Below are positions 14,017 to 44,353 of a stretch of DNA of 64,000 nt, in pieces. The stretch is from Aquabacterium sp. (GTDB lineage: Bacteria; Pseudomonadota; Gammaproteobacteria; Burkholderiales; Burkholderiaceae_C). The DNA lies in assembly GCF_048860245.1 (NCBI RefSeq), contig NZ_JBLIZW010000035.1, positions 5,882 through 69,881 on the forward strand, written 5' to 3'. The position numbers were made by a program, and so were the translations under genes. Each line of letters begins with the position of its first letter. Positions within the stretch are counted from its first letter, which is position 1. The notes under the pieces are model-generated. The model ran no database searches. It was not told the DNA's origin and saw only the letters and a list, made by a program, of their open reading frames with translations.

Positions 14017-14116
14017 TGCCGCCTCCCTCAGCCAACTGAGGGACTTGGGCCCTGCGTCACGCGCAGGATCTGGCCGTGCACGTACCCGCGTGCTGGCCTT
14101 TGAACAAGTTTTCATC

Positions 14117-15535: not shown

Positions 15536-15547
15536 GGAGATCACCAT

Positions 15548-29383: not shown

Positions 29384-29541
29384 CTCGCGCAGACAAGGTG
29401 TCTCGATGGGTGAAATCTTATGCTGATTGGTGAGGCATTTGATTGCGTTCTTTGCTTTGTATGAGTTTGTTTGTGCAATTAAATTGCTTAAATGTGAGTG
29501 TGTTTGGCAAAATATGCCTCATTGCTTGAATGAGGTGCATC

Positions 29542-30003
29542 ATGCAGCTTGATCGGTATGACAAAGAGATCCTGATTTGCTTGCAGCAAGACGGGCGGCT
29601 GACCAACCAGGAACTGGCCGATCGCATTGGCTTGTCGCCGTCACCGTGTCTGCGCCGAGTGCGGGCACTGGAAGAGGCGGGCCTGATCACGGGCTACCGT
29701 GCCCTGGTGGATGCTCGCAAGTTGGGCCTGACCTTGATGGCCTTGCTGCACATTTCCATGGACAAGCACACCCCGGAGCGGTTTGAGAACTTCGAGCGGG
29801 AAGTCGCCGCCATTCCCGAGGTAATGGAGTGCCTGTTGATCACCGGGCAGTCGGCGGATTACCAACTGAAAGTGGTGGTGCGGGACATGGACGCTTACCA
29901 GGATCTGCTTTTGAACCGTGTGACACGCATTGAAGGGGTGACCGGCGTTCATTCCAGCTTCGTTTTACGCAGAGTGGTCAACAACACGGCAGTCCCCGTT
30001 TAA
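29542..30003 (+). CDS. Lrp/AsnC family transcriptional regulator
   Basis: MQLDRYDKEILICLQQDGRLTNQELADRIGLSPSPCLRRVRALEEAG is a typical Lrp HTH. An RAM domain follows. Divergent from leuA. Confidence 0.88.
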   Translation: MQLDRYDKEILICLQQDGRLTNQELADRIGLSPSPCLRRVRALEEAGLITGYRALVDARKLGLTLMALLHISMDKHTPERFENFEREVAAIPEVMECLLITGQSADYQLKVVVRDMDAYQDLLLNRVTRIEGVTGVHSSFVLRRVVNNTAVPV

Positions 30004-30106
30004 GGGGGTTCACGAGCTTTGAGGCGCATCAAATCCGAGCGGACACTAACCCTTTTCCATTCCTGTACTTGAAACTAGAATAGAAATTAGTCAGCCGTTT
30101 AACAAT

Positions 30107-30565
30107 ATGTCGGTTCCCCTTCACGCGATTGCTTACGTGAGTTCTGCGACCCATCTGCTTGACAGCGGAGAGCTGGAGCAACTGTTGGTGGATGCGCGTG
30201 AGTTCAATGTGACGCAGGGGGTGACCGGTGTGCTCCTCTATGTCGATGGCTGCTTCATGCAGTGCATTGAGGGGCCGATGGAGGGGGTCGCCAGGGTCTA
30301 CCAACGGATCAAGGAGGCGAGCCGCCATCGCGGCCTGATCGAGTTGCTGAATCAGCCGGTCAAGCGTCGCGCATTTCCTGATTGGCACATGGGCTGTGGA
30401 AGCAATGCGCAGTCCGAGATGATCAACGACGCCACGGAGTCGTGGGAACGCATGTTGTCATCCGCCCGGGAGGTGGATGAATCGGTGCCAAGCCTTTTAT
30501 TGCTGCGCGCATTCTGGAAAGAGAGCCGAGCTGCTCGCACCAAGCGTGTCATGGCGAAGGCCTGA
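30107..30565 (+). CDS. Short BLUF-domain blue-light FAD photoreceptor
   Basis: YVSSA...FNVTQGVTGVLLYVDGCFMQCIEGP...RHRGLIELL...F.DWHM matches the BLUF fold signature (Tyr, Gln, Trp/Met positions). 152 aa with a short C-terminal extension. Confidence 0.85.
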   Translation: MSVPLHAIAYVSSATHLLDSGELEQLLVDAREFNVTQGVTGVLLYVDGCFMQCIEGPMEGVARVYQRIKEASRHRGLIELLNQPVKRRAFPDWHMGCGSNAQSEMINDATESWERMLSSAREVDESVPSLLLLRAFWKESRAARTKRVMAKA

Positions 30566-30679
30566 TGCGCCCATTCGGGTAATCGCCATCCCTTCCTTGA
30601 AGGTGTTGTCGCGGTTTCGACCCCGCCGCGCGCTACAGTGCTGCACAAATTCGAATATCTGCCGGGTGAGGTTTCCCGG

Positions 30680-31384
30680 ATGTCGTGGAGCGTGGGCATG
30701 CATATCACCCGTAGAACAGTTTTGTCGCTGACCGCAACGCAGCTTGCTCTGCTGAATGCGGGTTGTGCGACGGGCCCCGCCCCGGTCACGCGCCATTACA
30801 CCGAGAAGGTGTCCATGCTGCTGATTTCGCAGGATCACAAACAACTGGTGATCCTGGGGGATAACCACCACTATGTGTTTGATTGCCCGCCCGATGTGGC
30901 CATGCTGCCCAAGTCGCCTTTGCGTGCGAAGGTCAGCGCGGCGTTTTCGCCCTTCAAGGTGGACATCGAAGGCGTGATCACCGGCATGTACATGCTGCAC
31001 CTGCCCGACAACCTCACGCCGGTGGAAGTCGATCAAGCCCACGAGTTGGGCTTCACGCAAGACGAGCAGGGTCACTGGTTCTTGGGTAACAAGCTGACGG
31101 GCAAGCGCTATGTGCAGGGCAACACCCTGCGGGCGTGGCGCGATCATGAAAAACTCAACCGCACTTATGAAGTGTCGGTCGAGGCGGTCGAGACGCCCAT
31201 TCAGCATGCGGCCGAGGAAATGTCCACACCGGTCTATCTGACATCACATGGGGTGCTGCTGATTTATCTGGCGCCTCTGGCACCATTGCTCATTCCCATG
31301 ATGTTCATGTCTTACGAAAAGCGTCCCCAGTTGCCGAGCGCTGCGTCGGCGGAGTCGACGCCTGCGAGCGCGGTTGCCCCATGA
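30680..31384 (+). CDS. Hypothetical lipoprotein with C-terminal membrane anchor
   Basis: Tat-like/lipobox N-terminus (MHITRRTVLSLTATQLALLNAGC). C-terminal hydrophobic helix (GVLLIYLAPLAPLLIPMMFM). The stop overlaps the lrgA-like start (ATGA). Start could be 30638 GTG, 30680 or 30698 ATG. Confidence 0.55.
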   Translation: MSWSVGMHITRRTVLSLTATQLALLNAGCATGPAPVTRHYTEKVSMLLISQDHKQLVILGDNHHYVFDCPPDVAMLPKSPLRAKVSAAFSPFKVDIEGVITGMYMLHLPDNLTPVEVDQAHELGFTQDEQGHWFLGNKLTGKRYVQGNTLRAWRDHEKLNRTYEVSVEAVETPIQHAAEEMSTPVYLTSHGVLLIYLAPLAPLLIPMMFMSYEKRPQLPSAASAESTPASAVAP

Positions 31385-31740
31385 TTCAAGGTATGGCCAT
31401 GCTGGTGGCCGGTCAGTTGCTGGGTGAGGCAGTGGTCAGTGTGACAGGTCTGCCCATTCCGGGATCGGTGGCGGGCATGGTGCTGGTGTTGCTGGCGCTG
31501 TTGTACAAAAAGGGCCATTTGCCGGAGTTGCGACGGGCGGGTTCCACCATGTTGTTGCTGGTGCCCTTGCTGCTGGTGCCCGTCAGTGTCGGGATCATGG
31601 AGCAGGCAGACTTGCTGGCTGCCAACTGGTGGCCCTTGACTGCCGCCTTGTTGGTCAGCATCGTGGCCGGGATGGTCGCCACGGGTTGGACGATCCGTGT
31701 CCTGCGGCGTCTGGATGGTCAGGCAGGTGACGATGTCTGA
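31381..31740 (+). CDS. CidA/LrgA family (holin-like) membrane protein
   Basis: 119 aa with four hydrophobic helices. The LLGEAVV...GLPIPGSVAGMVL motif is typical of LrgA. Confidence 0.8.
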   Translation: MIQGMAMLVAGQLLGEAVVSVTGLPIPGSVAGMVLVLLALLYKKGHLPELRRAGSTMLLLVPLLLVPVSVGIMEQADLLAANWWPLTAALLVSIVAGMVATGWTIRVLRRLDGQAGDDV

Positions 31741-32455
31741 GGTGCTGATGCATGCCGCGCAGGTGGTGACGCATCACCATCTGTTTCCGCTGTTTCTGAC
31801 CCTGTCGGCTTACGCCGCCGCGACCTGGTTGTTCAAAAAGGCCGGTCAGTCGCCGTTTGTCCACCCGCTCGTGTTGTCGGTGGCGATGGTGATCGTGGCG
31901 CTGAAAGCCCTGGGGATGTCGTACCAGCATTACTTCCAGGCCACGCAGTTTTTGCACTGGATGCTGGGCCTGGCCATTGTGGCCTTGGCGATTCCGCTGT
32001 ATGCCGAGTTGCAGCATGTGGGCGCACGCTGGAAAAGCACCCTGGCCGCCATTGTGGTGGGCAGCGTCGTGGGGGTGGGCACGGCCATGCTGACCGCTTG
32101 GTGGCTGGGTGGCAGCCATGAGCTGGTGCTGGCGCTGGCCACCAAGTCGGTGACCACGGCGCTGGCCACGGTGGTGGCGCAACAGGTGGGCGCCAATGTG
32201 GCCTTGGCCGCCACCATCGTGCTGGTGACGGGGCTGCTGGGCGCGGTGATCGGTCCCTGGCTGCTTGCACGCATTTTGCCCAACGACGATGCCGCCCTGG
32301 GCACGGCACTGGGTACCTGCGCCCATGCCATCGGCACGTCGCGCGCCCTGCAGTTGGGTGAGCGCTGCGGTGCCTTTTCAGCGCTGGCCATGGGACTCAA
32401 TGGCTTGTTGACGGCCGCATTGCTGCCCATCTTGCTGAAATGGTGGGGTGCTTGA
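31733..32455 (+). CDS. LrgB family membrane protein
   Basis: About 240 aa and hydrophobic. Trimmed to ATG at 31733, overlapping the lrgA-like stop by 8 nt. SVTTALA motif typical of LrgB. Confidence 0.8.
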   Translation: MSEVLMHAAQVVTHHHLFPLFLTLSAYAAATWLFKKAGQSPFVHPLVLSVAMVIVALKALGMSYQHYFQATQFLHWMLGLAIVALAIPLYAELQHVGARWKSTLAAIVVGSVVGVGTAMLTAWWLGGSHELVLALATKSVTTALATVVAQQVGANVALAATIVLVTGLLGAVIGPWLLARILPNDDAALGTALGTCAHAIGTSRALQLGERCGAFSALAMGLNGLLTAALLPILLKWWGA

Positions 32456-32554
32456 GCGTTGAAGGTGCCCATGCACCACGATGGTGGCCCGTAACTTGCT
32501 GGTGTCACACACAGTCCGCACAATGTTTGCGGAGATGTCTTGCTGGAGATCTGT

Positions 32555-35500
32555 GTGTCCATCCACGTTGCCCTCAATCACGTCACGCATTACAAGTACG
32601 ACCGCCCGGTCAACCTGTCGCCACAGGTGATTCGTCTGCGGCCCGCGCCGCATTGCCGCACGCGGATCTTGTCGTACGCCCTCAAGGTCGAGCCTGCGCA
32701 GCACTTCATCAACTGGCAGCAGGATCCCTTCTCGAATCACCTGGCGCGCCTGGTGTTTCCCGAGAAAACGACCGAATTCAAGATCACGGTCGATGTGGTC
32801 GCCGAGATGGCGGTCTACAACCCCTTCGACTTCTTTCTGGAGCCGCACGCCGAGACCTTCCCGTTTACCTACGACGAAGCCTCGCTGCATGACCTCCAGC
32901 CCTACCTGGCCAAGGTCGAGCCGACGCCCGCCTTCCAGGCCTTTCTGAACACGATTGACCGCAGCGAAGTCCGCACGATCGACTTCCTCGTTCAACTCAA
33001 CCAGCGCCTGCAAAACGACATTTCGTACACCATCCGCATGGAGCCAGGGGTGCAGACGCCGGAGGAGACGCTGACGCTGAAGTCGGGTTCGTGCCGCGAC
33101 ACGGGCTGGCTGCTGGTGCAGACCTTGCGGCACATGGGCTTGGCGGCCCGCTTTGTGTCGGGCTACCTGATTCAGCTGAAAGCCGATGTGGCCGCGCTGG
33201 ATGGCCCGTCGGGCACAGAGGTTGACTTCACCGACCTGCACGCCTGGTGCGAGGTTTTCCTGCCAGGTGCGGGCTGGATTGGCCTGGACCCCACCTCGGG
33301 CTTGCTGGCAGGCGAAGGGCACATCCCTGTGGCCTGTACGCCAGAACCCACCGGTGCAGCCCCTGTGACCGGCGCCGTGGACGAGTGCGAGTGCGAGTTC
33401 GAGCACCACATGGCGGTGACCCGCATTTACGAGTCGCCCCGTGTGACCAAGCCGTACACCGATGACCAGTGGCAGGCCATTGATGCCTTGGGTGCCACGG
33501 TGGACCAGCACTTGGCTCAATCGGATGTGCGCCTGACCATGGGTGGCGAGCCGACCTTTGTGTCGGTGGACGACCGCGATGGTGCGGAGTGGAACACCGA
33601 CGCGCTGGGCCCCACCAAGCGCGGGCTTGCCACCAAATTGGTGCATAAGCTGCGCGCCCGGTATGGTGACGGTGGTTTCCTGCACTTTGGCCAAGGCAAG
33701 TGGTATCCGGGCGAGCAGTTGCCCCGCTGGGCGCTGTCGATTTTCTGGCGTGAAGACGGCCAGCCTTGCTGGCACGACCCGAGCCTGTTTGCCGACGAGC
33801 AAACCTGTGAGCGCTACACCAGCGAAGACGCCAAGCGCTTCATGGACACGCTGGCCACCAAGTTGGGCCTGTCCACGCAGTTCATCACCCCAGGCTACGA
33901 GGACACCTGGTACTACTTGTGGCGCGAGCGCCGTCTGCCCGTGAACGTGGACCCGCTGGATGCGCGTCTGGATGACGAGCTGGAGCGTGTCCGACTGCGT
34001 CGCGTGTTTGACCAAGGGCTGGACCACACGGTGGGCTATGTGCTGCCAATCAAACCCAATGAGCAGGTGCCGCTGGGTGGGCCACGCTGGTCGACCGGCC
34101 CCTGGTTCTTCCGGGACGAGCGCATGTACCTGATCCCGGGCGATTCGCCCATGGGTTATCGCCTGCCGCTGGACTCGCTGCCTTGGGTGTCCAAGGGCGA
34201 GTACCCCTATCTGCATGAGCACGATCCGTTTGCGCCCAAGTCAGCCTTGCCTGATGCCTCGGCGCTGCGCGCGCAGTACGGGCAGCATCAGGTGGGTGGC
34301 GGTTTTGCGCAAGGTGGCGCTGTGTCCATCCAGGGGCAGGGCGTGACGGGTTTGGGTGGTGGTGCACTCAACGGTGAGTGGGGCGCGCTGGGTGCCAATC
34401 CGGCGTCGACGGGGCCAGGGGCCTCGACCAGCGCGTTGGTCGACCCGATGCGGGCACCGTCTCGCTTTGAGTCGGCGCACTGGATCACCCGCACCGCGCT
34501 GTGCGTGGAAGTGCGCAACCCGGATCGCGCCAGCGGCCCCAAGGTCGAGACCGAAGGGCAGGGCGGTGGTGTGCTGTATGTGTTCATGCCGCCCCTGGCC
34601 AGCCTGGATCACTATCTGGAGTTGCTGGCTGCGGTCGAGGCCACGGCCGTTGAGACTGGCTTGAAGCTGGTGCTGGAAGGCTACCCGCCGCCACGCGATG
34701 CACGCTTGAAGGTGCTGCAGGTGACACCCGATCCCGGTGTCATCGAGGTCAACATCCATCCGGCGTCCAGCTGGGCCCAGTTGGTGGATCACACCGAGTT
34801 TCTGTACCAGGCGGCGCACGAAACCCGCTTGTCGACCGAGAAGTTCATGGTCGACGGTCGTCACACCGGCACCGGCGGCGGCAACCACTTCGTGCTGGGT
34901 GGGGCCACACCGTCGGACAGCCCCTTCCTGCGTCGCCCGGATCTCATTCCCAGCCTGCTGACTTTCTGGCATAACCACCCGTCGTTGTCGTACCTGTTCT
35001 CGGGCCTGTTCATCGGCCCGACCAGCCAGGCGCCGCGCATTGACGAGGCCCGCCAGGATCAGGTGTACGAAACCGAGATCGGGTTGAGCGAGATCGAGCG
35101 GCAGTTGGCCATTTGGGGGCAGTGCCCGCCCTGGCTGATCGACCGCACCTTGCGCAACTTGCTGATTGATGCGACGGGCAACACGCACCGCAGCGAGTTC
35201 TGCATCGATAAGCTGTATTCGCCAGACGGCCCGACCGGACGTTTGGGCTTGCTGGAGCTGCGTGCCTTCGAGATGCCGCCCCATGCCCAGATGAGTCTGG
35301 TGCAGCAACTGCTGTTGCGTGCGCTGGTGGCCTGGTTCTGGAAAGAGCCGTACAAGGGCCATGGCGCACAGCGCCTGACGCGGTGGGGCACAGGTCTGCA
35401 TGACCGCTTCATGCTGCCGAGCTTTGTTCATCAGGACTTTGAAGACGTGCTGGCCGAGCTGGGCATGGCGGGCTACCACTTTGAGTCCAGCTGGTTTGCG

Positions 35501-36070
35501 CCGCACTTCGAGTTCCGCTTCCCCTACATCGGCGAAATCGCTTCGTCAGGCGTACGCCTGACCCTGCGCAGTGCCCTGGAGCCCTGGCATGTGATGGGTG
35601 AAGAAGGTGCTGTGGGTGGCACGGTGCGCTATGTGGACTCGTCGCTGGAGCGTCTGGAAGTCAAGGCCACGGGCTTGAACGGCAACCGACACGTCATCAC
35701 GGTTAACGGGCAGATTTTGCCCATGCACCCCACGGGGCGTGTGGGCGAGTTCGTGGCCGGCGTGCGCTCCCGCGCACGGCAGCCGCCGTCCTGTCTGCAC
35801 CCCACCATTGGTGTGGATGCGCCGCTCACGTTTGACGTGGTGGACAGCTGGCTCAAGCGCTCGGTGGGCGGGTGCCAGTACCATGTGGCACACCCTGGTG
35901 GCCGCAATTACGACACCTTCCCCATCAACTCGTACGAGGCTGAAAGCCGTCGTCTGGCGCGCTTCTTCCGCATGGGCCACACGCCGGGCACCATGCAGAT
36001 CAAGCCTTTGCCTGCGGGCATCGAGCATCCGCTGACGCTGGATTTGCGGACCACGCGACAGGCGTCTTGA
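32555..36070 (+). CDS. Large transglutaminase-family protein with C-terminal DUF2126-type (predicted amidoligase) region
   Basis: GTG at 32555 follows GGAGA. Bact_transglu_N-like start (HVALNHVTHYKYDRPV). Transglutaminase-core Cys/His/Asp (SGSCRDTGW, DLHAWCEVF, GLDPTSG). A long conserved C-terminal extension follows. Confidence 0.85.
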   Translation: MSIHVALNHVTHYKYDRPVNLSPQVIRLRPAPHCRTRILSYALKVEPAQHFINWQQDPFSNHLARLVFPEKTTEFKITVDVVAEMAVYNPFDFFLEPHAETFPFTYDEASLHDLQPYLAKVEPTPAFQAFLNTIDRSEVRTIDFLVQLNQRLQNDISYTIRMEPGVQTPEETLTLKSGSCRDTGWLLVQTLRHMGLAARFVSGYLIQLKADVAALDGPSGTEVDFTDLHAWCEVFLPGAGWIGLDPTSGLLAGEGHIPVACTPEPTGAAPVTGAVDECECEFEHHMAVTRIYESPRVTKPYTDDQWQAIDALGATVDQHLAQSDVRLTMGGEPTFVSVDDRDGAEWNTDALGPTKRGLATKLVHKLRARYGDGGFLHFGQGKWYPGEQLPRWALSIFWREDGQPCWHDPSLFADEQTCERYTSEDAKRFMDTLATKLGLSTQFITPGYEDTWYYLWRERRLPVNVDPLDARLDDELERVRLRRVFDQGLDHTVGYVLPIKPNEQVPLGGPRWSTGPWFFRDERMYLIPGDSPMGYRLPLDSLPWVSKGEYPYLHEHDPFAPKSALPDASALRAQYGQHQVGGGFAQGGAVSIQGQGVTGLGGGALNGEWGALGANPASTGPGASTSALVDPMRAPSRFESAHWITRTALCVEVRNPDRASGPKVETEGQGGGVLYVFMPPLASLDHYLELLAAVEATAVETGLKLVLEGYPPPRDARLKVLQVTPDPGVIEVNIHPASSWAQLVDHTEFLYQAAHETRLSTEKFMVDGRHTGTGGGNHFVLGGATPSDSPFLRRPDLIPSLLTFWHNHPSLSYLFSGLFIGPTSQAPRIDEARQDQVYETEIGLSEIERQLAIWGQCPPWLIDRTLRNLLIDATGNTHRSEFCIDKLYSPDGPTGRLGLLELRAFEMPPHAQMSLVQQLLLRALVAWFWKEPYKGHGAQRLTRWGTGLHDRFMLPSFVHQDFEDVLAELGMAGYHFESSWFAPHFEFRFPYIGEIASSGVRLTLRSALEPWHVMGEEGAVGGTVRYVDSSLERLEVKATGLNGNRHVITVNGQILPMHPTGRVGEFVAGVRSRARQPPSCLHPTIGVDAPLTFDVVDSWLKRSVGGCQYHVAHPGGRNYDTFPINSYEAESRRLARFFRMGHTPGTMQIKPLPAGIEHPLTLDLRTTRQAS

Positions 36071-36082
36071 TCACGCCCAAGC

Positions 36083-36111
36083 AAAAAGGGGAGCATCCGC
36101 TCCCCTTTTTT
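36083..36111. terminator. Bidirectional rho-independent terminator
   Basis: AAAAAGGGGAGC-atcc-GCTCCCCTTTTTT lies between the convergent transglutaminase-DUF2126 and MCP genes. Confidence 0.7.
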
Positions 36112-36142
36112 ATGCCCCGGTCTGGCGTCGTTTGTTCGCAGG

Positions 36143-37705
36143 TCAATGTGTGCGGAACACTGAAACCAGTTCGTTCAAGGTTTGGGCCTGATGCTTCAGG
36201 CTCTCTGACGCAGCCGCAGACTCTTCCACCAGCGCGGCATTCTGTTGTGTGACCTGATCCAGTTGCATGACGGCGTCGCTGACTTGGTCGATGCCGGTGG
36301 ATTGTTCGTTCGATGCCGAGGCGATTTCGTTGATCAGTCCCGTGACGCGCTGAACCTGCTGCACGATGCCCTGCATGTGCTGGCCGGCTTCGCTGACCAG
36401 CGATTCGCCGGCGGCCACCTTCTCAACGCTCTCGTTGATCAGTGTCTTGATTTCGCGCGCGGCATTGGCGCTGCGCTGTGCCAAGGCGCGGACTTCACCG
36501 GCCACCACCGCGAAGCCACGACCTTGTTCACCTGCACGGGCGGCCTCCACCGCGGCATTGAGCGCCAAGATGTTGGTCTGGAAGGCGATGCCATCGATCA
36601 CGCTGATGATGTCGGCAATCCGGTGGCTGGAATGGGTGATGTCACCCATGGTCTGCACCACGCGGTTCACCACGTCGCCACCGACGGCCGCTGCCGACGA
36701 CGCTTCGGCCGCGATGCGCGCTGCCTGATGGGCTGTGTCGGCGTTGTTGCGCACGGTGGAGTTCAGCTCCTCCATGGCCGCAGCGGTTTCTTCGAGGTTG
36801 GAGGCTTGCTCTTCGGTGCGCTGAGACAGATCAGCGTTGCCCATGGCAATCTCGGTCGCACCTGTCGAAATCGACTCGCTGCTTTGGCGTACCCGCGTGA
36901 CCATGTTGACCAGGCTGTCGTTCATGTGTCGCAGCGCAGTCAGGACTTGCGCGGTTTCGTCGCGGCCCTGATCGTGGATGACCGACGTCAGGTCGCCGGA
37001 CGCCACAGTCTCGGCAACCTGAACGGCCTCATTGAGTGGGCGAACGATGGAGCGCGTGATGACCACACCAATCAGCACCGTCAAGGCCACCGTGATGGCC
37101 CCTGCCACGATCATGGCCACCGACACTTGCGTGTAGGACGATTTGCTGGAGTCGCTCACCTTGCCGGCGAGGACTTCGTTGTACTTCCACAGGGCTTCCA
37201 CCGCTTCACTGGCCGTCTGGAATGCGGGGCCACCGCGCTTGATCACCACATCACGGTATTGCTCAAACAAGACGGGATCGGTGTTCGATTTTTTTGCCAG
37301 TTCCGACGCTTCTGTGGAGATGGCGGCATAGGCTTGCGTGGCCTTGTCCACCGCCTCCAGGAGTTGTCGATCAGTGTCGTCCGCGGTCAAAGACTTGTAG
37401 CGCTCCACGGCGGCGCGCATGTCCGCCTCGTGTTGTTGCACGATGGCGTAGTCCTTGATGCGGTCGTCATGATTGGCTTGCAGCAGGGCGCGCAGCTCAT
37501 AGCGACGACTGTCTCCCAGGTGCGCGCGGAATTTGTAGATTTCCGTGAGCGAGGGAACAATGTTGTCCGAAAAGGCAACCGTGTTGTCGTTCAGGACACC
37601 AGCCTGATGCTTGCCGAAGATCTGACTCCCCAGGAACAAACAGAGAATGACGCCAAAGCCCAGCGCCAGTCGTTGGCCGATCTTGAGGTTGCCCAAAAAT
37701 TGCAT
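36143..37705 (-). CDS. Methyl-accepting chemotaxis protein
   Basis: Trimmed to ATG at 37705 ([23 protein letters not shown]1). Periplasmic four-helix-type sensor, HAMP, and a highly conserved signalling hairpin ([37 protein letters not shown]). Confidence 0.9.
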
Positions 37706-37879
37706 GGTGTCGCCCTGAACAGTGGCTTGGATGAACGAGTCGTGAAATCGCGTGTGCGCCACAATCTGTGCTGTCAGCCTGCACTTCGTGTACTTTTGTG
37801 AAGCGGCTCGCTTGTTATCGGTTCAAAGTCTGAAAAACTTGAACACTTGTTCAGCAATTACCCTAAATTTGTCCACACC

Positions 37880-40465
37880 ATGTCCGCCAATCAGCTTCCG
37901 CTCGACGATGCGCCTGCCGCTGCCCTGGTCAGCGTCGAGCGCATGTTGTCGCAGGCGCACTTGATCGACGGCGGGCATTACGACGAGTTGTGCGAGCCGG
38001 ATGGCGAGGTGCGTCCTTCCTGGCGAGATTTCTGGTCGCATCTGGGGGCACCTCTTCAAGACCTGTCCCGACGCCAGCATCTGTTGACGCAGCAAATTCA
38101 GGAAGACGGGGTCACGTACAACGTCTACAACGCTTCGGGCGGCCCCAGCCGGCCCTGGTCGCTGGAAGTGTTGCCCATGATCGTGTCGGCGTCGGATTGG
38201 CAGGCGCTGGAGCGCGGGGTGATGCAGCGTGCCACCTTGCTGGAGCGCGTCCTGCATGACGTGTATGGCGAGCAGCGGGTGCTGCATGAAGCCTTGTTGC
38301 CAGCAGCACTCGTGCAAGGGCACCCTGGCTACATTCGTGGTTTGCAAGGGGTGCGCCCGATAGGGGGCGTGTACCTGCACATGCTTGCGTTTGATCTGGT
38401 GCGTGGGCCGGACGGTGCTTGGTGGGTGGCGGCACAGCGTACCCAGGCTCCTTCCGGATTGGGATACGTCATGCAGAACCGGCTGATCGTGTCTCGCCTG
38501 TTCCCCGATGCCTATCGGGCCATGAATGTCCAGCACTTGGCCAGCAGCTATCGGCAGTTGGTCGACACCATGGCTGCCTTGGCGGCACAGTGCGCGGGTG
38601 GCGAGCCCCCCCGGCTGGCGCTCTGGACGCCAGGTCCCTACAACGAGACCTACTTCGAGCAAGCCTACCTGGCGCGGTATCTCGGGTTGCCGTTGGTGGA
38701 GGGGGGCGATCTCATCGTTCGTGACGAGCATCTGTTCCTCAAAACCGTTCAGGGTCTGGAGCCCATTCACGGCTTGTTGCGTCGCCTGGATGACGACTAC
38801 TGTGACCCGCTGGAGCTGCGGGTGGACTCGACCCTGGGGGTGCCGGGACTGATGCAAGTCGTGCGCGCTGGCAATGTGGTGCTGGCGAATGCGCTGGGCA
38901 CGGGTTTTCTGGAGTCGCCGGCCGTCCATGGCTTCTTGCCCGCGCTGTCTGAGTCGATGCTGGGTGAACCCTTGCAATTGCCTTCTGCGCCGACCTGGTG
39001 GTGTGGCGAGGCAGCGGCCTGGGAGGCCGTCAAGCCGACCTTGGCACAGCAATTGGTGCGCCCCACGTATCCATGTCGACCGGGGCCGGAGTGCGAGACT
39101 TTGTACGGCCCCACGCTTTCTGCCCCTGGCCTCAAGACCCTGGAGGCGCGCATCAGCCAGAACCCGTCGGCGTTCACGGCACAGAACTATGTGCCCTACG
39201 CTCAGACGCCCGTGTGGACCGACGATCAGCTGCAGATGCGCGGTGCATCGCTGCGTGTGTACGCCTTGTCGGACGGTCATGGTGGATGGCGCGTGGTGCC
39301 GGGCGGCATGACCCGCATTGCCACCCGAGATGCTGGTCCGGTGTCCATGCAACTTGGCGGCAGCTCGCTGGACACGTGGGTCTTGACCGAGGGGGCGGTG
39401 GACGCCTTCTCGATGTTGCCCCAGTCGGTTCGGCTGGAAGAGTTGGCGCAGCGGCAGCGGCCCGTATCCAGTCGCACGGCAGAAAATCTTTTCTGGATGG
39501 GACGCTACACCGAGCGATGCGAGCAGCAGCTGCGCCTGGCGCAGGCCTTGATCAACCTGCGCGCCATCGATGACGAGCCGGACGAGGCCGTCTTGCGTGC
39601 CTTGTCCGCGTTGGGCATCACCAACGGCTTGGTGCCGCCGGGCACCCCTGGCCTGGATCGATCCGGTCGCGTGTTCGAGCGCGTGGCGCTGGAGGCCCTC
39701 ACCGATGCAGATGCCAAGCAAGGGGCCTTCAGTCTGGCATTCAATCTCTCGGCCTTGTCCCGCTCGGCCGAAGCGCTTCGGGAAAGACTGCTGCCATCCC
39801 AAACCCGGCTGATGCGCACCATGGTGGCCGATTTTCAGTCTCTGGCTTCAGAGGCTGAGCAAGAGGATGCCGTGCCCATCAGTGCGCGTTCGGGTGAAGT
39901 CATGGCCGCGTTGGACCATCTGGCCATTCAGTTGTCCGCCGTTACGGGGGCACAGACCGACCGCATGACCCGCGATGCGGGCTGGCGCCTGATGTCGGTG
40001 GGGCGCATGGTGGAGCGGCTGGTGGGGTACGCCAGCTTCTTGCGTGCCTTCTGGCGGGAGGGCGCGTTCCAGCATCCCCAGGGTTTTGATGTGGTGCTGG
40101 ACCTGTTTGACAGCACGATCACCTTCCGTGCGCGCTTTCAGCGGCGGCTGGAAGTGCCTGCCATGCTGGCGCTGCTGGTGCTCGATGAGACCAACCCCCG
40201 CTCCCTGGCTTGTGTGGTCCGACGTATGCGGACCGAACTGGGCAAACTGCCGGCGAGGACCGGTGCGCAGGACGATCTGCAAGCGTGGCTGCCATACGAG
40301 GGTCTGGGCGTCACCCTCGAAGAACTCTGCCATCCGGAAACCGGGCGCAAGGCGGTTCAGTCCTTGCTTGATCGCTTGGTGGAAGCAGGGTGGAAGCTGT
40401 CTGACGAGATCGGACGTCAATACTTTGCTCATGCTGAACCCAACGACTCGATGGTGAGTACATGA
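37880..40465 (+). CDS. Fusion protein: circularly permuted type-2 ATP-grasp domain + alpha-E domain
   Basis: The N-terminal about 480 aa are colinear with the 477-aa ATP-grasp protein at 41520 (LANALGTGFLESP vs LANAFGTGIADDK; GGMTRIA vs GGLTRVA; DTWVLTEG vs DTWVLED). The C-terminal half starts SRTAENLFWMGRYTERCEQ, matching the alpha-E protein at 42956. Confidence 0.85.
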   Translation: MSANQLPLDDAPAAALVSVERMLSQAHLIDGGHYDELCEPDGEVRPSWRDFWSHLGAPLQDLSRRQHLLTQQIQEDGVTYNVYNASGGPSRPWSLEVLPMIVSASDWQALERGVMQRATLLERVLHDVYGEQRVLHEALLPAALVQGHPGYIRGLQGVRPIGGVYLHMLAFDLVRGPDGAWWVAAQRTQAPSGLGYVMQNRLIVSRLFPDAYRAMNVQHLASSYRQLVDTMAALAAQCAGGEPPRLALWTPGPYNETYFEQAYLARYLGLPLVEGGDLIVRDEHLFLKTVQGLEPIHGLLRRLDDDYCDPLELRVDSTLGVPGLMQVVRAGNVVLANALGTGFLESPAVHGFLPALSESMLGEPLQLPSAPTWWCGEAAAWEAVKPTLAQQLVRPTYPCRPGPECETLYGPTLSAPGLKTLEARISQNPSAFTAQNYVPYAQTPVWTDDQLQMRGASLRVYALSDGHGGWRVVPGGMTRIATRDAGPVSMQLGGSSLDTWVLTEGAVDAFSMLPQSVRLEELAQRQRPVSSRTAENLFWMGRYTERCEQQLRLAQALINLRAIDDEPDEAVLRALSALGITNGLVPPGTPGLDRSGRVFERVALEALTDADAKQGAFSLAFNLSALSRSAEALRERLLPSQTRLMRTMVADFQSLASEAEQEDAVPISARSGEVMAALDHLAIQLSAVTGAQTDRMTRDAGWRLMSVGRMVERLVGYASFLRAFWREGAFQHPQGFDVVLDLFDSTITFRARFQRRLEVPAMLALLVLDETNPRSLACVVRRMRTELGKLPARTGAQDDLQAWLPYEGLGVTLEELCHPETGRKAVQSLLDRLVEAGWKLSDEIGRQYFAHAEPNDSMVST

Positions 40466-41421
40466 GTGAGCGAGAAGTGGCTTGGGCCCGACTCTCGGTC
40501 GAGCACGAAACACATTACAGCTATAGCTGGGCGGTGGAGCAGGCGCAACACATTGCCTGCCTGCGCCCTTTGTCGGATGAAGGGCAGACGCTGCTGCGGT
40601 TTGACATGTCTGTGCAGCCGCCGCCCGCACAGCACAGCACCCGGCGTGACACGCATGGCAACAGCAGCGCCTATTTCTCCATCCATGCAGCGCATGCCGA
40701 TTTGAATGTTCGTGCACGCAGCGAAGTCAGGGTGCTGCATCGCTATGCCGACCTCGATCCTGCCCGTGGGGCGACCTGTGGTGAGGTGAGGGAGCGCTTG
40801 GCCTACCGTGCGCATGCACCGTATGAAGAAGCCTGCGAGTACCTGTATCCCTCGCCGTTCGTGCCCAGGCATGCCGAGCTGGCCGCCTATGCCGCAGAGT
40901 CTTTGCAAGACGATCGTCCCTTGGCGGAGGCAGCCATCGAGTTGATGCAGCGCATCCACCGGGACTTCAAATACGCCCCGGCATCGACGGACATTTCCAC
41001 CCCCATCTCTGAGGTGTTTGCCAAGCGGCAGGGGGTTTGTCAGGACTTCGCCCACCTGATGTTGGGCTGTCTGCGTGCGTGGGGCGTGGCTGCACGGTAC
41101 GTCAGCGGCTATTTGCTGACGCAACCTCCCCCTGGCCAGGCGCCTTTGGTGGGCGCGGATGCCTCGCACGCGTGGTTGAGCGTGTGGGTCCCCGGACTGG
41201 GGCTGCCGCATGCACAAGATTGGCTCGATCTGGACCCCACCAACGATTGCGTGCCCGCCTTGCACCATGTCAGGGTGGCGCATGGACGCGATTTTGGGGA
41301 TGTCACGCCCCTGCGTGGTGTGATCCGCGGGGGCGGGCAGCACACCCTCTTGGTGCGTGTGACCACCCGCCTGTTGGAAGAGCACGATACACGCGCGATT
41401 AAATGCACCACAATGGTGTGA
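40462..41421 (+). CDS. Transglutaminase-family protein (Bact_transglu_N + transglutaminase core)
   Basis: The start overlaps the upstream stop (ATGA). Catalytic-type Cys/His/Asp contexts GVCQDFAHL, SHAWLSVW, DLDPTN. Confidence 0.85.
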   Translation: MSEREVAWARLSVEHETHYSYSWAVEQAQHIACLRPLSDEGQTLLRFDMSVQPPPAQHSTRRDTHGNSSAYFSIHAAHADLNVRARSEVRVLHRYADLDPARGATCGEVRERLAYRAHAPYEEACEYLYPSPFVPRHAELAAYAAESLQDDRPLAEAAIELMQRIHRDFKYAPASTDISTPISEVFAKRQGVCQDFAHLMLGCLRAWGVAARYVSGYLLTQPPPGQAPLVGADASHAWLSVWVPGLGLPHAQDWLDLDPTNDCVPALHHVRVAHGRDFGDVTPLRGVIRGGGQHTLLVRVTTRLLEEHDTRAIKCTTMV

Positions 41422-41519
41422 GTGCATGTCGTAGGTCAAGAAGCCGACACATCGCCTTGGCACACTCTGTGCATTGAATAGAGCACAGAGGGTTAAGAGA
41501 GCCCCGATGGGACCAAGCG

Positions 41520-42953
41520 ATGCGATTCTTTGACGAAATGCATGTGAGCAGCGCCCAAGTGCGCGACCACTACAAGGTGTACGACAAGTGGCTGGGCCGT
41601 CAGCCCCGGGAGCTCATGAGTTCCCGTCGGGAAGAGGCTGAGATGATCTTCCGTCGCGTGGGGATCACCTTTGCGGTGTACGGCGACAAGGACGAGGATG
41701 GTTCGGGCACCGAGCGCCTCATTCCCTTCGACCTGATTCCCCGCATCATCCCCGCCGCCGAGTGGAAGGAAATGGAGAAGGGGCTCAAGCAGCGCGTCAC
41801 GGCCCTCAACCGCTTCCTCGACGACATCTACCACGATCAGGAAATCCTGAAGGCGGGTGTCATTCCGGCTGAGCCCGTGCTCAACAACGCCCAGTTCCGC
41901 AAGGAGATGATGGGTTTGAACGTGCCGGGCGGCATCTACTCCATCATCTCGGGCATCGACATCGTTCGCGCCTGCAACCCGGATGGCAGCGGCACCTACT
42001 ACGTGCTGGAAGACAACCTGCGTGTGCCATCGGGCGTGAGCTACATGCTCGAAAACCGCAAGATGATGATGCGGCTCTTCCCCGAGCTGTTTGCCGAGCA
42101 CCGTGTGGCCCCCGTGGCGCACTACCCCGACTTGCTGCTCGACACCTTGCGCAGCATGGCGCCGGGTGGCGTGAACGAGCCCACCGCCGTGGTGCTGACG
42201 CCGGGCATGTACAACTCGGCCTACTTCGAGCATGCGTTCCTGGCCCAGCAGATGGGTGTGGAGCTGGTAGAAGGCAAGGACCTGTTCGTCAAGGATGACT
42301 TCGTCTACATGCGGACCACCCGTGGCCCTCAGCGTGTGGACGTCATCTACCGCCGCGTGGACGACGACTTCATGGACCCCGAGGTCTTCCGCAAGGATTC
42401 GACACTGGGTGTGGCCGGCTTGCTGCGCGCCTACCGTGCCGGCAACGTCACGCTGGCCAACGCATTCGGCACCGGGATTGCCGACGACAAGTCGATCTAC
42501 CCCTACGTGCCCAAAATGATCGAGTTCTACCTGGGCGAAAAGCCCATCCTGCAGAACGTGCCCACGCACATCTGCCGCGAACCCGATGCCCTCAAGTACA
42601 CCCTCGACAACCTGGCCGATCTCGTGGTCAAGGAAGTGCACGGGGCAGGGGGCTATGGCATGTTGGTCGGCCCCGCGGCCACCAAGGCCGAGATCGAAGA
42701 GTTCCGAAAGGTCCTGATCGCCAACCCGACCAACTACATCGCGCAGCCCACGCTGTCGCTGTCGATCTGCCCGACGTTTGTGGAATCCGGCATTGCCCCA
42801 CGCCACATTGATTTGCGGCCGTTTGTGCTGTCGGGCAAAGAGGTGCAGATGGTGCCGGGTGGCTTGACCCGCGTGGCACTCAAGGAAGGCTCTCTCGTGG
42901 TCAACAGTTCGCAAGGGGGCGGCACCAAGGACACCTGGGTTCTGGAGGACTGA
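41520..42953 (+). CDS. Circularly permuted type-2 ATP-grasp protein
   Basis: 477 aa, typical of the DUF404/DUF407-type family (YYVLEDNLRVPSGVSYMLENR, VDVIYRRVDDDFMDP, GGLTRVALKEGSLVVNSSQGGGTKDTWVL). Confidence 0.85.
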   Translation: MRFFDEMHVSSAQVRDHYKVYDKWLGRQPRELMSSRREEAEMIFRRVGITFAVYGDKDEDGSGTERLIPFDLIPRIIPAAEWKEMEKGLKQRVTALNRFLDDIYHDQEILKAGVIPAEPVLNNAQFRKEMMGLNVPGGIYSIISGIDIVRACNPDGSGTYYVLEDNLRVPSGVSYMLENRKMMMRLFPELFAEHRVAPVAHYPDLLLDTLRSMAPGGVNEPTAVVLTPGMYNSAYFEHAFLAQQMGVELVEGKDLFVKDDFVYMRTTRGPQRVDVIYRRVDDDFMDPEVFRKDSTLGVAGLLRAYRAGNVTLANAFGTGIADDKSIYPYVPKMIEFYLGEKPILQNVPTHICREPDALKYTLDNLADLVVKEVHGAGGYGMLVGPAATKAEIEEFRKVLIANPTNYIAQPTLSLSICPTFVESGIAPRHIDLRPFVLSGKEVQMVPGGLTRVALKEGSLVVNSSQGGGTKDTWVLED

Positions 42954-42955
42954 TC

Positions 42956-44014
42956 ATGCTGAACGAACGCATTGAAGAGCACCTGCCATCCCACCTCATC
43001 GAGACTGAATCTGGGGCATTGCGTGTGAGCAATGCTTCGTATCTGGAGACCAAGCCCATGCTGTCGCGTACCGCCGACCACCTGTTTTGGATGGCCCGCT
43101 ACATGGAGCGTGCCGAGAACACGGCCCGCCTGATCGATGTGAACTATCAGACCTCCCTGCTACCGCAGTCCAGTGAGACGGCCACGCAAGGGTGGAAGGG
43201 CTTGTTGAGCATCAGCGAACTGATGCCCGACTACACCCAGCGGTTTGAGACGGTCAACGCGCGTGACGTGATGGCCTTCATGGTGACGGATGCCAACAAC
43301 CCATCTAGCATCTATTGCTGCTTGCGTGCGGCACGTGAGAACGCGCGTGCCGTGCGTGGCGCGCTGACCACCGAAGTGTGGGAAACCATGAACCAGACCT
43401 GGCTGGAGTTCAACCGGCTGGTCAAGTCCGGCTTGCTGGCGAAGGACCCGGGCGAGTTGTTTGAGTGGGTGAAGTTCCGTTCGCACCTGTCTCGCGGGGT
43501 GACCTTGGGCACCATGCTGCAGGACGAAGCCTTCCACTTCCAGCGCATTGGCACCTTCCTGGAACGCGCCGACAACACCGCACGTTTGCTGGATGTGAAG
43601 TTCCACGCTCGCAACACCGAGTTCTTCGGGTCAGGCATTGGCAACGAAGGCAAGGAAGTGGACTTCTACCACTGGTCGGCCGTGTTGCGCAGCGTGTCGG
43701 CATTTGAGGTCTACCGCAAGGTGTACCGCGATGTGATCCGTCCGGAAAAGGTGGCCGAGTTGTTGATGCTCCGCGCCGAAATGCCTCGCTCACTGGTGCA
43801 TTGCATGGACGAAGTCGTGCGTAACTTGCGCGCCGTGGGCAACGACCACAGCCAGGAAACGATCCGTCGTGCTGGACGCCTGCGTGCCGACTTGCAGTTT
43901 GGGCGCATTGATGAAATTCTGGCGACCGGCCTGCACGCCTACCTGACCCAGTTCCTGGATCGTGTGGGAGACCTGGGCTACGGCATCAGCCGTGACTTCC
44001 TGATGCCATCTTGA
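42956..44014 (+). CDS. Alpha-E domain protein
   Basis: The start is 2 nt after the ATP-grasp stop. LSRTADHLFWMARYMERAENTARL and a second repeat, FHFQRIGTFLERADNTARLLD, are typical of the alpha-E family. Confidence 0.85.
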   Translation: MLNERIEEHLPSHLIETESGALRVSNASYLETKPMLSRTADHLFWMARYMERAENTARLIDVNYQTSLLPQSSETATQGWKGLLSISELMPDYTQRFETVNARDVMAFMVTDANNPSSIYCCLRAARENARAVRGALTTEVWETMNQTWLEFNRLVKSGLLAKDPGELFEWVKFRSHLSRGVTLGTMLQDEAFHFQRIGTFLERADNTARLLDVKFHARNTEFFGSGIGNEGKEVDFYHWSAVLRSVSAFEVYRKVYRDVIRPEKVAELLMLRAEMPRSLVHCMDEVVRNLRAVGNDHSQETIRRAGRLRADLQFGRIDEILATGLHAYLTQFLDRVGDLGYGISRDFLMPS

Positions 44015-44030
44015 GCATCCGGCACCCATG

Positions 44031-44062
44031 AAAAAAGCCGACCTGGTGAGGTCGGCTTTTTG
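44031..44062. terminator. Bidirectional rho-independent terminator
   Basis: AAAAAAGCCGACC-tggtga-GGTCGGCTTTTTG lies between the convergent alpha-E and yggX genes. Confidence 0.7.
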
Positions 44063-44080: not shown

Positions 44081-44353
44081 TCAGGCGGAAGGCGGGACGT
44101 AGCCTGCGACCTGTTCGGCACCACCGCCGAAGAAGAATTGCTCCATCTGGCGGGCGAGGTACTGGCGTGCGCGTGCATCGGCCAGGTTCAAGCGGTTTTC
44201 ATTGACCAGCATGGTCTGGTGCTTGAGCCACATCTGCCAAGCTTCCTTGCTGATCTCGTTGTAAATGCGCTTGCCCAGTTCACCAGGATAGGGAGCGAAA
44301 TCCAAGCCATCACCTTCCTTGTTGAGGTGCTTGCAGAAAATGGTACGTGCCAT
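44081..44353 (-). CDS. yggX: Oxidative-damage protection / Fe(2+)-trafficking protein YggX
   Basis: Trimmed to ATG at 44353. [52 protein letters not shown] is a clear YggX signature. Confidence 0.88.

Follow-up and report, generated by a model that had tools for sequence, protein, structure and literature searches.

Here we report a computational analysis of a five-gene cluster, located at positions 32555-44014 of a 64-kb stretch of an Aquabacterium sp. contig (hereafter the window), that encodes transglutaminase-fold proteins together with circularly permuted ATP-grasp ligases and alpha-E proteins. On balance, and with modest confidence, we read this locus as a cytoplasmic system of two ancient paralogous modules, which most likely belongs to a nitrogen-starvation regulon of the sigma-54/NtrC type and which makes and cleaves amide bonds. 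Module A comprises genes i, ii and iii, and module B comprises genes iv and v, which in this lineage come without the Anbu peptidase. The locus is one more routine copy of a gene cluster that occurs very widely and is already known from computational work, and it adds nothing unusual to the catalogue. The evidence consists of the domain content and intact catalytic residues of the encoded proteins, the ligase fold predicted for the DUF2126 region of gene i, the linkage of the two modules across bacterial lineages, the conserved sigma-54 motifs upstream of both modules, and published data on orthologous clusters.

A listing of open reading frames (ORFs) with their translations recovered all five plus-strand genes at the positions and lengths given in a first-pass annotation of the sequence. 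Gene i (32555..36070, GTG start, 1171 aa) encodes a transglutaminase fused to DUF2126; gene ii (37880..40465, 861 aa) a fusion of circularly permuted ATP-grasp and alpha-E domains; gene iii (40462..41421, 319 aa) a transglutaminase-fold Cys193/His236/Asp258 protein; gene iv (41520..42953, 477 aa) a stand-alone circularly permuted ATP-grasp ligase; and gene v (42956..44014) an alpha-E protein of 352 aa, or of 318 aa if translation starts at M35 (43058). All of the domains assigned in that annotation were recovered by Pfam, with headline E-values between 0 and 1e-99, while NCBIfam has no model for any of the five proteins. An anti-phage defence system was considered as well and rejected, as none of the five proteins matched a PADLOC defence-system model at E <= 0.01.

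The product of gene i contains Bact_transglu_N (1.3e-27), Transglut_core (9.4e-16) and DUF2126 (E=0) domains, and is 100% identical to an NCBI Aquabacterium protein of equal length (P0391); likewise, the product of gene ii is 100% identical to a deposited Aquabacterium protein of equal length (P0001), which fixes the start codons of both genes. Residue conservation was examined in alignments of the window proteins with homologues from 83 related loci. The Cys/His/Asp motifs quoted in the first-pass annotation are present in the translations and are not degenerate: the gene i triad C180/H229/D245 is at least 97% conserved across 81 relatives, and the gene iii triad C193/H236/D258 reaches the same level in 73 relatives. 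The signature residues of the ATP-grasp and alpha-E domains are also at least 97% conserved across dozens of species.

For the DUF2126 region of gene i, an AlphaFold2 (AF2) model of residues 276-1171 was obtained with a mean predicted local distance difference test score (pLDDT) of 85.3 and a predicted template-modelling score (pTM) of 0.86. Its best Foldseek matches in the PDB are the GCS2 ligases (probability 0.98-0.99), namely E. coli YbdK 1R8G (probability 0.99, E 2e-3) and its Salmonella homologue 1TT4, followed by glutamine synthetases (GS), gamma-glutamylmethylamide synthetase (GmaS), Dop (7OYH) and gamma-glutamylcysteine synthetase; a 1-naphthylamine GS-like enzyme is also in the list. 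As the alignments cover only part of the 896-residue model, the E-values are weak. Judging from the model, DUF2126 has a carboxylate-amine ligase fold of the GS/GCS2 type. In 2008, the Rv2566 family was described as a transglutaminase-fold domain fused to a carboxylate-amine ligase (PMC2588565), and the structural matches of the DUF2126 model provide independent support for that ligase prediction. The family is large, with more than 3000 clusters at 50% identity. Inside the DUF2126 region of gene i lies a Gly/Ala/Gln-rich low-complexity linker (residues about 578-627, positions 34286-34435; pLDDT 27-43), which is the variable part of the family; in nearly all members, the two matched stretches are separated by a gap at this place.

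The gene ii fusion protein matches CP_ATPgrasp_2 (8.8e-138) and Alpha-E (2.7e-53), and its ATP-grasp part matches PDB 3N6X at 1e-80. Gene iii encodes Bact_transglu_N (2.2e-22) and Transglut_core (1.3e-18) domains, and its relatives in the PDB are 6G49 and 3ISR. Its ATG overlaps the stop codon of gene ii (ATGA), as the first-pass annotation had noted, so that the two genes are translationally coupled. Neither gene i nor gene iii has a signal peptide that could be recognised in the sequence.

Genes iv and v form the split counterpart of the fusion. The gene iv product matches CP_ATPgrasp_2 with E = 9.5e-167, is about 72% identical to 3N6X, a structural genomics entry from Methylobacillus, and has 151 of its 477 positions conserved at 97% or more in 37 sequences (36 relatives and the window gene). 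The depositors labelled 3N6X a putative glutathionylspermidine synthase, a name that is not evidence of function. Searches of all PDB sequences with the ATP-grasp protein, both by sequence (phmmer) and with a 14-sequence profile, returned only 3N6X and no characterised structure of glutathionylspermidine synthetase (Gss), and the link to this enzyme was rejected on that ground. Gene v, which starts 2 nt after the end of gene iv as previously annotated, matches Alpha-E at 1.3e-99. Its first 34 codons (42956-43057) are weakly conserved, and residues 1-35 are disordered in the AF2 model; NCBI annotates relatives from the Met equivalent to M35 (318-320 aa). The N-terminal extension MLNERIE.HLPSHL is kept in frame in A. 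olei. The gene v model is all-helical (pLDDT 81.9) and has no Foldseek match in the PDB below E = 0.3 (best E 0.33) or above a template-modelling (TM) score of 0.3, and a sequence search likewise found no PDB match; as modelled, alpha-E is an orphan fold without a relative among solved structures. The W..R..ER motif occurs twice in gene v (E51-R52 and E203-R204), with equivalents in the gene ii fusion, whose alpha-E domain retains both ER motifs in the alignment. These two copies suggest an internal repeat.

The ATP-grasp and alpha-E proteins probably work as a unit, because they are fused in gene ii and its relatives, which number roughly 8000 or more, and because genes iv and v lie only 2 nt apart. 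Between the two modules, the paralogues share 32% identity for ATP-grasp and 25% for the transglutaminases, and the alpha-E domains have little in common beyond the ER motif. A recent duplication of the modules was rejected in view of these values, and the paralogues are ancient. Gene ii evolves faster than gene v, with its nearest relatives being 66-72% identical, versus 87-91% for gene v.

To place the cluster in its genomic context, 84 loci were compared, namely the window, three annotated neighbourhoods (Aquabacterium olei, L001; a Joint Genome Institute (JGI) metagenome contig, L002; and Methylibium rhizosphaerae, L003), and 80 further loci. The latter were collected from one genome per species by scanning with a diverse DUF2126 alignment, and their six-frame ORFs were scored with the window proteins; they span Burkholderiales, Pseudomonas, Marinobacter, Serratia, Alphaproteobacteria, Desulfobacterota, Acidobacteria, Verrucomicrobia and Planctomycetes. 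The closest relatives of the window proteins are found in Aquabacterium, Rubrivivax and Methylibium, and the three annotated neighbourhoods share the series DUF2126, fusion, transglutaminase, ATP-grasp, alpha-E. The DUF2126/fusion/transglutaminase triplet is tight in 60 of the 70 loci with enough flanking sequence. The exceptions are insertions like that of the window, artefacts of stop-to-stop ORF boundaries, and one locus (L081) in which no transglutaminase ORF was detected. The triplet of the window keeps its order on one strand, and its first two genes are separated by a terminator and by a chemoreceptor gene of 1.6 kb on the minus strand.

The split ATP-grasp/alpha-E pair is present within 10 kb of the triplet in 44 of 67 informative loci. 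In 17 loci, among them those of Acidobacteria, Verrucomicrobia, Desulforhopalus and Marinobacter, it directly precedes the triplet on the same strand, and in 19 others (Comamonadaceae) it lies upstream in divergent orientation. Two loci have it downstream on the opposite strand, and six, all of them from the window's own clade, downstream on the same strand. The pair was not found in the flanks of 23 loci, mainly from Pseudomonas and Paraburkholderia. The two modules are thus genuinely linked across Proteobacteria, Acidobacteria, Verrucomicrobia and Desulfobacterota. Having both architectures in one block, which the first-pass annotation had singled out as the special feature of this locus, proves to be the common state. 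What is lineage-specific here is only the gene order, the loss of a third transglutaminase and the inserted chemoreceptor gene.

The third transglutaminase is a short gene that directly follows the split alpha-E gene in Methylibium (L003 16019-16813, 264 aa) and in two other loci (L007 3784-4698 and L016 7919-9904). It is missing from the window and from the Aquabacterium loci; in the window, no transglutaminase gene follows gene v, and only a terminator and a convergent yggX-like gene are found there. Module B has lost its own transglutaminase in the lineage of the window, which suggests that gene iii or gene i may supply that activity to both modules. Clustering of 2354 unassigned neighbour ORFs from the 84 loci yielded no recurrent Anbu, transporter or small tag gene, and the clusters obtained reflect lineage-specific synteny only, such as that of ComEC and RidA-like genes. 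Within the window itself, no predicted gene has a proteasome-type or Anbu-type Pfam match, in line with the absence of an Anbu-type peptidase recorded earlier.

The cluster had also been described as a single block, which does not hold at the level of transcription. Between gene i and genes ii-v lie a minus-strand gene for a methyl-accepting chemotaxis protein (36143..37762, 539 aa; Pfam MCPsignal, HAMP and 4HB_MCP_1) and a strong terminator, which means that the five genes do not form a single operon. This terminator (36083..36112), shared by gene i and the convergent chemoreceptor gene, is a bidirectional intrinsic hairpin of the form GGGGAGC-AUCC-GCUCCCC followed by a U-run, with a folding free energy (dG) of -20 kcal/mol (z = -5.3). 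A second bidirectional intrinsic terminator (44032..44061; dG -21.3 kcal/mol, z = -6.1) ends the gene iv-v unit and is common to it and the convergent yggX-like gene (44081-44353, minus strand; Pfam Iron_traffic). Both strong hairpins were missed by the terminator pattern of our promoter scan and confirmed by folding. The 11.5-kb block consists of at least two, and probably three, transcription units, the three being gene i alone, the pair ii-iii and the pair iv-v. The gaps between the cluster genes measure 2-100 nt, the chemoreceptor insertion excepted. The chemoreceptor gene is lineage-specific cargo and lies outside the system. The DUF2126-fusion junction is a variable slot in the Aquabacterium clade, being occupied by an RND (resistance-nodulation-division) efflux pump in A. 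olei (L001 5524-9781) and by a PAS histidine kinase in the JGI contig (L002 7993-9912), and empty in Methylibium (L003) and in most other loci.

Upstream regions of 150 nt were searched for the sigma-54 consensus TGGCAC-N5-TTGC, for which the background frequency at no more than one mismatch is 4.8e-5 per nt. Two promoter-like -24/-12 elements with one mismatch each were predicted on the plus strand of the window, TGGCCCGTAACTTGC at 32485..32499, 55 nt before the start of gene i, and TGGCACACTCTGTGC at 41458..41472, 47 nt before the ATG of gene iv. Both elements (GG-N10-GC) are kept at the same positions in the three annotated neighbourhoods. Sigma-54-like sites were detected upstream of the DUF2126 gene in 37 of 81 loci, versus 0.6 expected. 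For the stand-alone ATP-grasp gene, 14 of 41 loci had such a site upstream, versus 0.3 expected; when two mismatches were allowed, the latter count rose to 24 of 41, versus 2.4 expected. In the region upstream of the fusion gene, which served as an internal control, such a site was found in only one of 81 loci. Across loci this amounts to an enrichment of about 50-fold over background, in which the counts are not independent events, since related species share sites by descent. The motif nevertheless recurs in separate genera with differing spacers, and in site-anchored alignments only TGGC-N7-cTTGCt is conserved and the flanks are not. The A. olei and JGI loci have a weaker sigma-54-like site (TGGTA-N6-CTTGC) before the fusion gene, which is missing from the window. 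No promoter was identified for gene ii, and no sigma-70 promoter was found in a scan of the region.

Candidate NtrC sites were scored against TGCACC-N5-GGTGCA. In the window, a predicted palindrome-like site with two mismatches, TGCACCACGATGGTGGC (32472..32488, plus strand), abuts and overlaps the -24 element of gene i and is present in A. olei as well, and a second one, TGCACCACAATGGTGTG (41404..41420, plus strand), again with two mismatches, overlaps the stop codon of gene iii and lies 38 nt upstream of the -24 element of gene iv. Sites with at most two mismatches were found upstream of the DUF2126 gene in 12 of 80 loci (about 2.5 expected) and upstream of the stand-alone ATP-grasp gene in 4 of 41 (1.3 expected). 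In a Burkholderia locus (L016), the first gene is preceded by both a sigma-54 site and an NtrC site with one mismatch. A perfect 8-bp inverted repeat, CTCTGTGC / GCACAGAG (41464-41491), overlaps the -12 element of the gene iv promoter, and folding of the surrounding 46 nt gave a dG of -18.9 kcal/mol (z -4.2). As a part of the system this hairpin was set aside, being stable but not conserved in the three annotated neighbourhoods.

Published expression data connect orthologous clusters with nitrogen limitation. In B. cenocepacia, the genes BCAM1233-1236, which encode an ATP-grasp, an alpha-E, a transglutaminase and a large transglutaminase protein, have values of -6.0 to -9.4 in the table of an ntrC mutant, depend on sigma-54 as well, and rank among the genes with the strongest NtrC and sigma-54 dependence when nitrogen is limiting (PMC5491218). 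In P. putida, PP_2686-2688 are induced 11-37-fold by nitrogen limitation and have been assigned to NtrBC (PMC7801951); in addition, expression on nitrate exceeds that on ammonium 16- to 22-fold for PP_2685 (Anbu) and PP_2688 (circularly permuted ATP-grasp) (PMC8050072). In a Bradyrhizobium RpoN study, a CP_ATPgrasp gene is listed with the predicted site TGGCCCGGCCCTTGC. The first-pass annotation had stated that no substrate, product or phenotype was established; full-text searches of the literature to mid-2026 indeed yielded no substrate or product for these proteins. With regard to phenotype the statement is incomplete, given the published NtrC/sigma-54 dependence and nitrogen-limitation induction of orthologous clusters and the protease activity and virulence phenotype claimed for Rv2569c of M. 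tuberculosis.

The closest of these counterparts is the cluster of B. cenocepacia H111 (I35_5080-5083, corresponding to BCAM1233-1236), which like the window belongs to the order Burkholderiales, the equivalence of the two loci being deduced from the annotations in the paper and from the L016 locus and not from a direct alignment with H111 sequences. There, the dependence on NtrC and sigma-54 under nitrogen limitation has been shown; the sites in the window are sequence predictions. As in L016, the split pair of B. cenocepacia, together with a transglutaminase of its own, precedes the DUF2126 gene, while in the window the pair follows the triplet, lacks its own transglutaminase and is accompanied by the chemoreceptor insertion. 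Genes iv and v also correspond to the first two genes of the Anbu operon of P. putida (PP_2688-2685) and Y. bercovieri, which is induced by nitrogen limitation and whose ATP-grasp protein has ATPase activity. In contrast to that operon, neither a transglutaminase nor the Anbu Ntn-hydrolase follows alpha-E in the window, where the pair is joined to the DUF2126 triplet instead. PMC5666114 and PMC6376114 credit the computational definition of the ATP-grasp/alpha-E/transglutaminase/Anbu operon to Iyer et al. 2009, as the first-pass annotation had done. These Anbu structure papers describe the role of the operon as unconfirmed, and phosphate release from ATP was observed for the Y. bercovieri ATP-grasp orthologue (PMC6376114). 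Recombinant proteins produced in E. coli were used in much of the earlier biochemistry (PMC5666114, PMC6376114).

We infer the chemistry of the system, the order of its steps, the class of its substrate and its physiological role as follows. Each ATP-grasp/alpha-E unit would activate a carboxylate as an acyl-phosphate, as would, separately, the DUF2126 domain. The activated carboxylate would then be joined to an amine, forming an amide, gamma-glutamyl or isopeptide bond, and the transglutaminase-fold proteins with their Cys-His-Asp triads would hydrolyse these bonds or transfer them, in either case by way of a thioester intermediate. Overall, amide-linked nitrogen, whether in peptides, proteins or a small amine, would be processed at the expense of ATP when fixed nitrogen is scarce. 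We rate a protein or peptide substrate and a small amine or amide substrate about equally.

Several observations weigh against this picture. The sigma-54 and NtrC sites of the window are sequence predictions, there is no sigma-54 motif before gene ii in the window, and most of the non-proteobacterial loci lack a recognisable sigma-54 motif, so that this type of regulation may be specific to certain lineages. The NtrC-like palindromes are enriched only modestly, and that of gene i shares bases with the -24 element, an unusual position for an activator site. In the literature to mid-2026, no substrate, product or loss-of-function phenotype tied to nitrogen was found for any member of the family. 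The proteins of the Anbu operon, when co-expressed, formed no stable complexes, and Anbu had no detectable peptidase activity (PMC6376114). A 2026 preprint reports that Rv2411c and Rv2567 of M. tuberculosis were negative as candidate gamma-aminobutyric acid (GABA)-trehalose synthetases, a result that rules out only that reaction. Finally, a protease activity has been claimed for M. tuberculosis Rv2569c, along with a virulence phenotype. Serine-protease inhibitors block this activity, and E-64 and N-ethylmaleimide (NEM) do not; if the activity is indeed that of Rv2569c, its insensitivity to cysteine-protease inhibitors is at odds with a Cys-His-Asp mechanism.

We take the genes Rv2566-Rv2567-Rv2569c and Rv2411c-Rv2409c of M. 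tuberculosis to correspond to genes i, ii and iii and to the split module, respectively; unlike in the window, the two modules lie at separate loci in this organism. To our knowledge, actinobacteria have no sigma-54, and hence the regulation in M. tuberculosis would be different. Rv2566 is the founding member of the transglutaminase-carboxylate-amine ligase fusions to which the gene i family belongs, and Rv2567 and Rv2411c have been listed as uncharacterised candidates with an ATP-binding domain. Rv2569c is taken as the counterpart of gene iii by locus and domain description only, and it differs from our interpretation of gene iii in being claimed as a cell-wall serine protease; its protease data say nothing about the conserved cluster.

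A nitrogen-responsive amide-bond system of this kind could act on proteins, in the manner of pupylation, and we consider this tentatively as one way in which the cluster might work. The combined cluster would then be the proteobacterial counterpart of pupylation, induced by nitrogen starvation and controlled by sigma-54/NtrC: the ligases would add an amino acid or peptide tag to proteins, alpha-E would serve as an adaptor or acceptor, and the transglutaminase-fold enzymes would edit, trim or remove the mark and feed amino-acid recycling, with degradation by Anbu elsewhere. In mycobacteria, nitrogen recycling is supported by pupylation and the proteasome. The ligase fold of DUF2126 is also that of PafA and Dop (Dop 7OYH being among the Foldseek matches; PMC2588565), and in both systems a GS/GCS2-type ligase is combined with an enzyme that cleaves the bond; PafA/Dop act with the proteasome, and operons related to that of the window include a proteasome-like protease; elsewhere, the split module precedes Anbu in an operon that is induced by nitrogen limitation. 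Transglutaminase-fold enzymes, moreover, usually act on proteins or peptides, as exemplified by the matches to 6G49, 3ISR and PNGase. What makes this idea doubtful is the lack of a small tag gene: none that resembles Pup lies beside the ligases of the window cluster, with its intergenic gaps of 2-100 nt, and likewise no Pup-like ORF was found for the Rv2566-type family (PMC2588565). Nor is there an AAA unfoldase or a proteasome in the window, or an Anbu gene in the window or any of the 84 neighbourhoods, and Anbu itself, as noted above, displayed neither peptidase activity nor stable complexes (PMC6376114). Unlike in pupylation, the cleavage would fall to a transglutaminase-fold enzyme and not to a Dop paralogue.

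Alternatively, the substrate could be a small molecule. As in the PuuA/PuuD, GmaS or Gss pathways, an amine or amide would be ligated to a carboxylate at the expense of ATP, and thiol amidohydrolases would free the nitrogen; to this, too, we attach a rather low probability. Scavenging and catabolic genes are the typical members of NtrC regulons (PMC5491218), and small molecules are also the substrates of the enzymes structurally closest to DUF2126, namely YbdK, glutamine synthetase, GmaS and the 1-naphthylamine GS-like enzyme. The extreme conservation of gene iv (72% identity to 3N6X and its 151 near-invariant positions) fits an invariant, universal substrate, and both the lack of a tag gene and the name given to 3N6X by its depositors point in the same direction. 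E. coli Gss resembles the window system in that an ATP-grasp-type ligase is paired with a papain-like cysteine amidase, so that one and the same amide bond is both formed and broken. The amidase of Gss, however, is a CHAP domain and not a transglutaminase fold, Gss has no counterpart of alpha-E or DUF2126, and neither sequence nor profile searches connect the ATP-grasp proteins of the window with characterised Gss structures. In addition, no transporter or oxidoreductase is consistently linked to the cluster, and three large multi-domain proteins with an orphan helical partner exceed the needs of the known gamma-glutamyl pathways.

Far less probable is the biosynthesis of a non-ribosomal peptide-like metabolite or cofactor unrelated to nitrogen, in which the transglutaminase-fold proteins would serve for maturation, as peptidases or transferases. 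It is among the original proposals cited in PMC5666114, and ATP-grasp and GS-type ligases do build many peptide metabolites. Making nitrogen-rich peptides specifically in nitrogen starvation would be counter-intuitive, however, no exporter or precursor gene is linked to the cluster, and its near-universal, vertical conservation across phyla is unlike that of patchy secondary-metabolite clusters. We give practically no credence to the idea that the transglutaminase-like proteins act on their own as secreted or cell-wall proteases, in the way claimed for Rv2569c, and cluster with ligases only incidentally. Genes i and iii have no visible signal peptide, and the ATGA coupling and the near-invariant triplet argue for a joint intracellular function. 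The conserved Cys-His-Asp site may not be the source of the activity of Rv2569c, which is insensitive to E-64 and NEM, and the Aquabacterium-type relatives are, by their source names, environmental bacteria.

Several features of the window surrounding the cluster were recorded as well. An lrgA/lrgB (cidAB-like) pair (31381-32455) ends 100 nt 5' of gene i. The cidAB genes of B. cenocepacia were reported to be sigma-54- and NtrC-dependent; they lie at a different locus, and the parallel with the lrgAB pair of the window may be a coincidence. Between leuA and lrgAB, the region 29530-31384 encodes an Lrp/AsnC regulator, a BLUF blue-light sensor and a 248-aa protein without a Pfam match. A 7.5-kb stretch including this region is missing at the syntenic position of A. 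olei, where TetR and desaturase genes directly precede the DUF2126 gene. Copper-handling genes at 14045-16915 and 57857-60205, encoding an outer-membrane efflux protein, a multicopper oxidase and a heavy-metal P-type ATPase, are unrelated to the cluster. The segment 55000-56500 has the lowest G+C content of the window (0.58-0.60), and contains only short ORFs with atypical codon-position GC.

The genes of this cluster are among the most widespread "known unknowns" in bacteria, with members in M. tuberculosis, Pseudomonas and Burkholderia. Our analysis adds a regulatory and comparative context to them, namely the linkage of the two modules, their sigma-54 motifs, the predicted fold of DUF2126 and the orphan status of alpha-E. 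The conserved sigma-54 motifs on both modules, combined with the published NtrC dependence of orthologous clusters, indicate that nitrogen-limited cultures are where these genes should be on.

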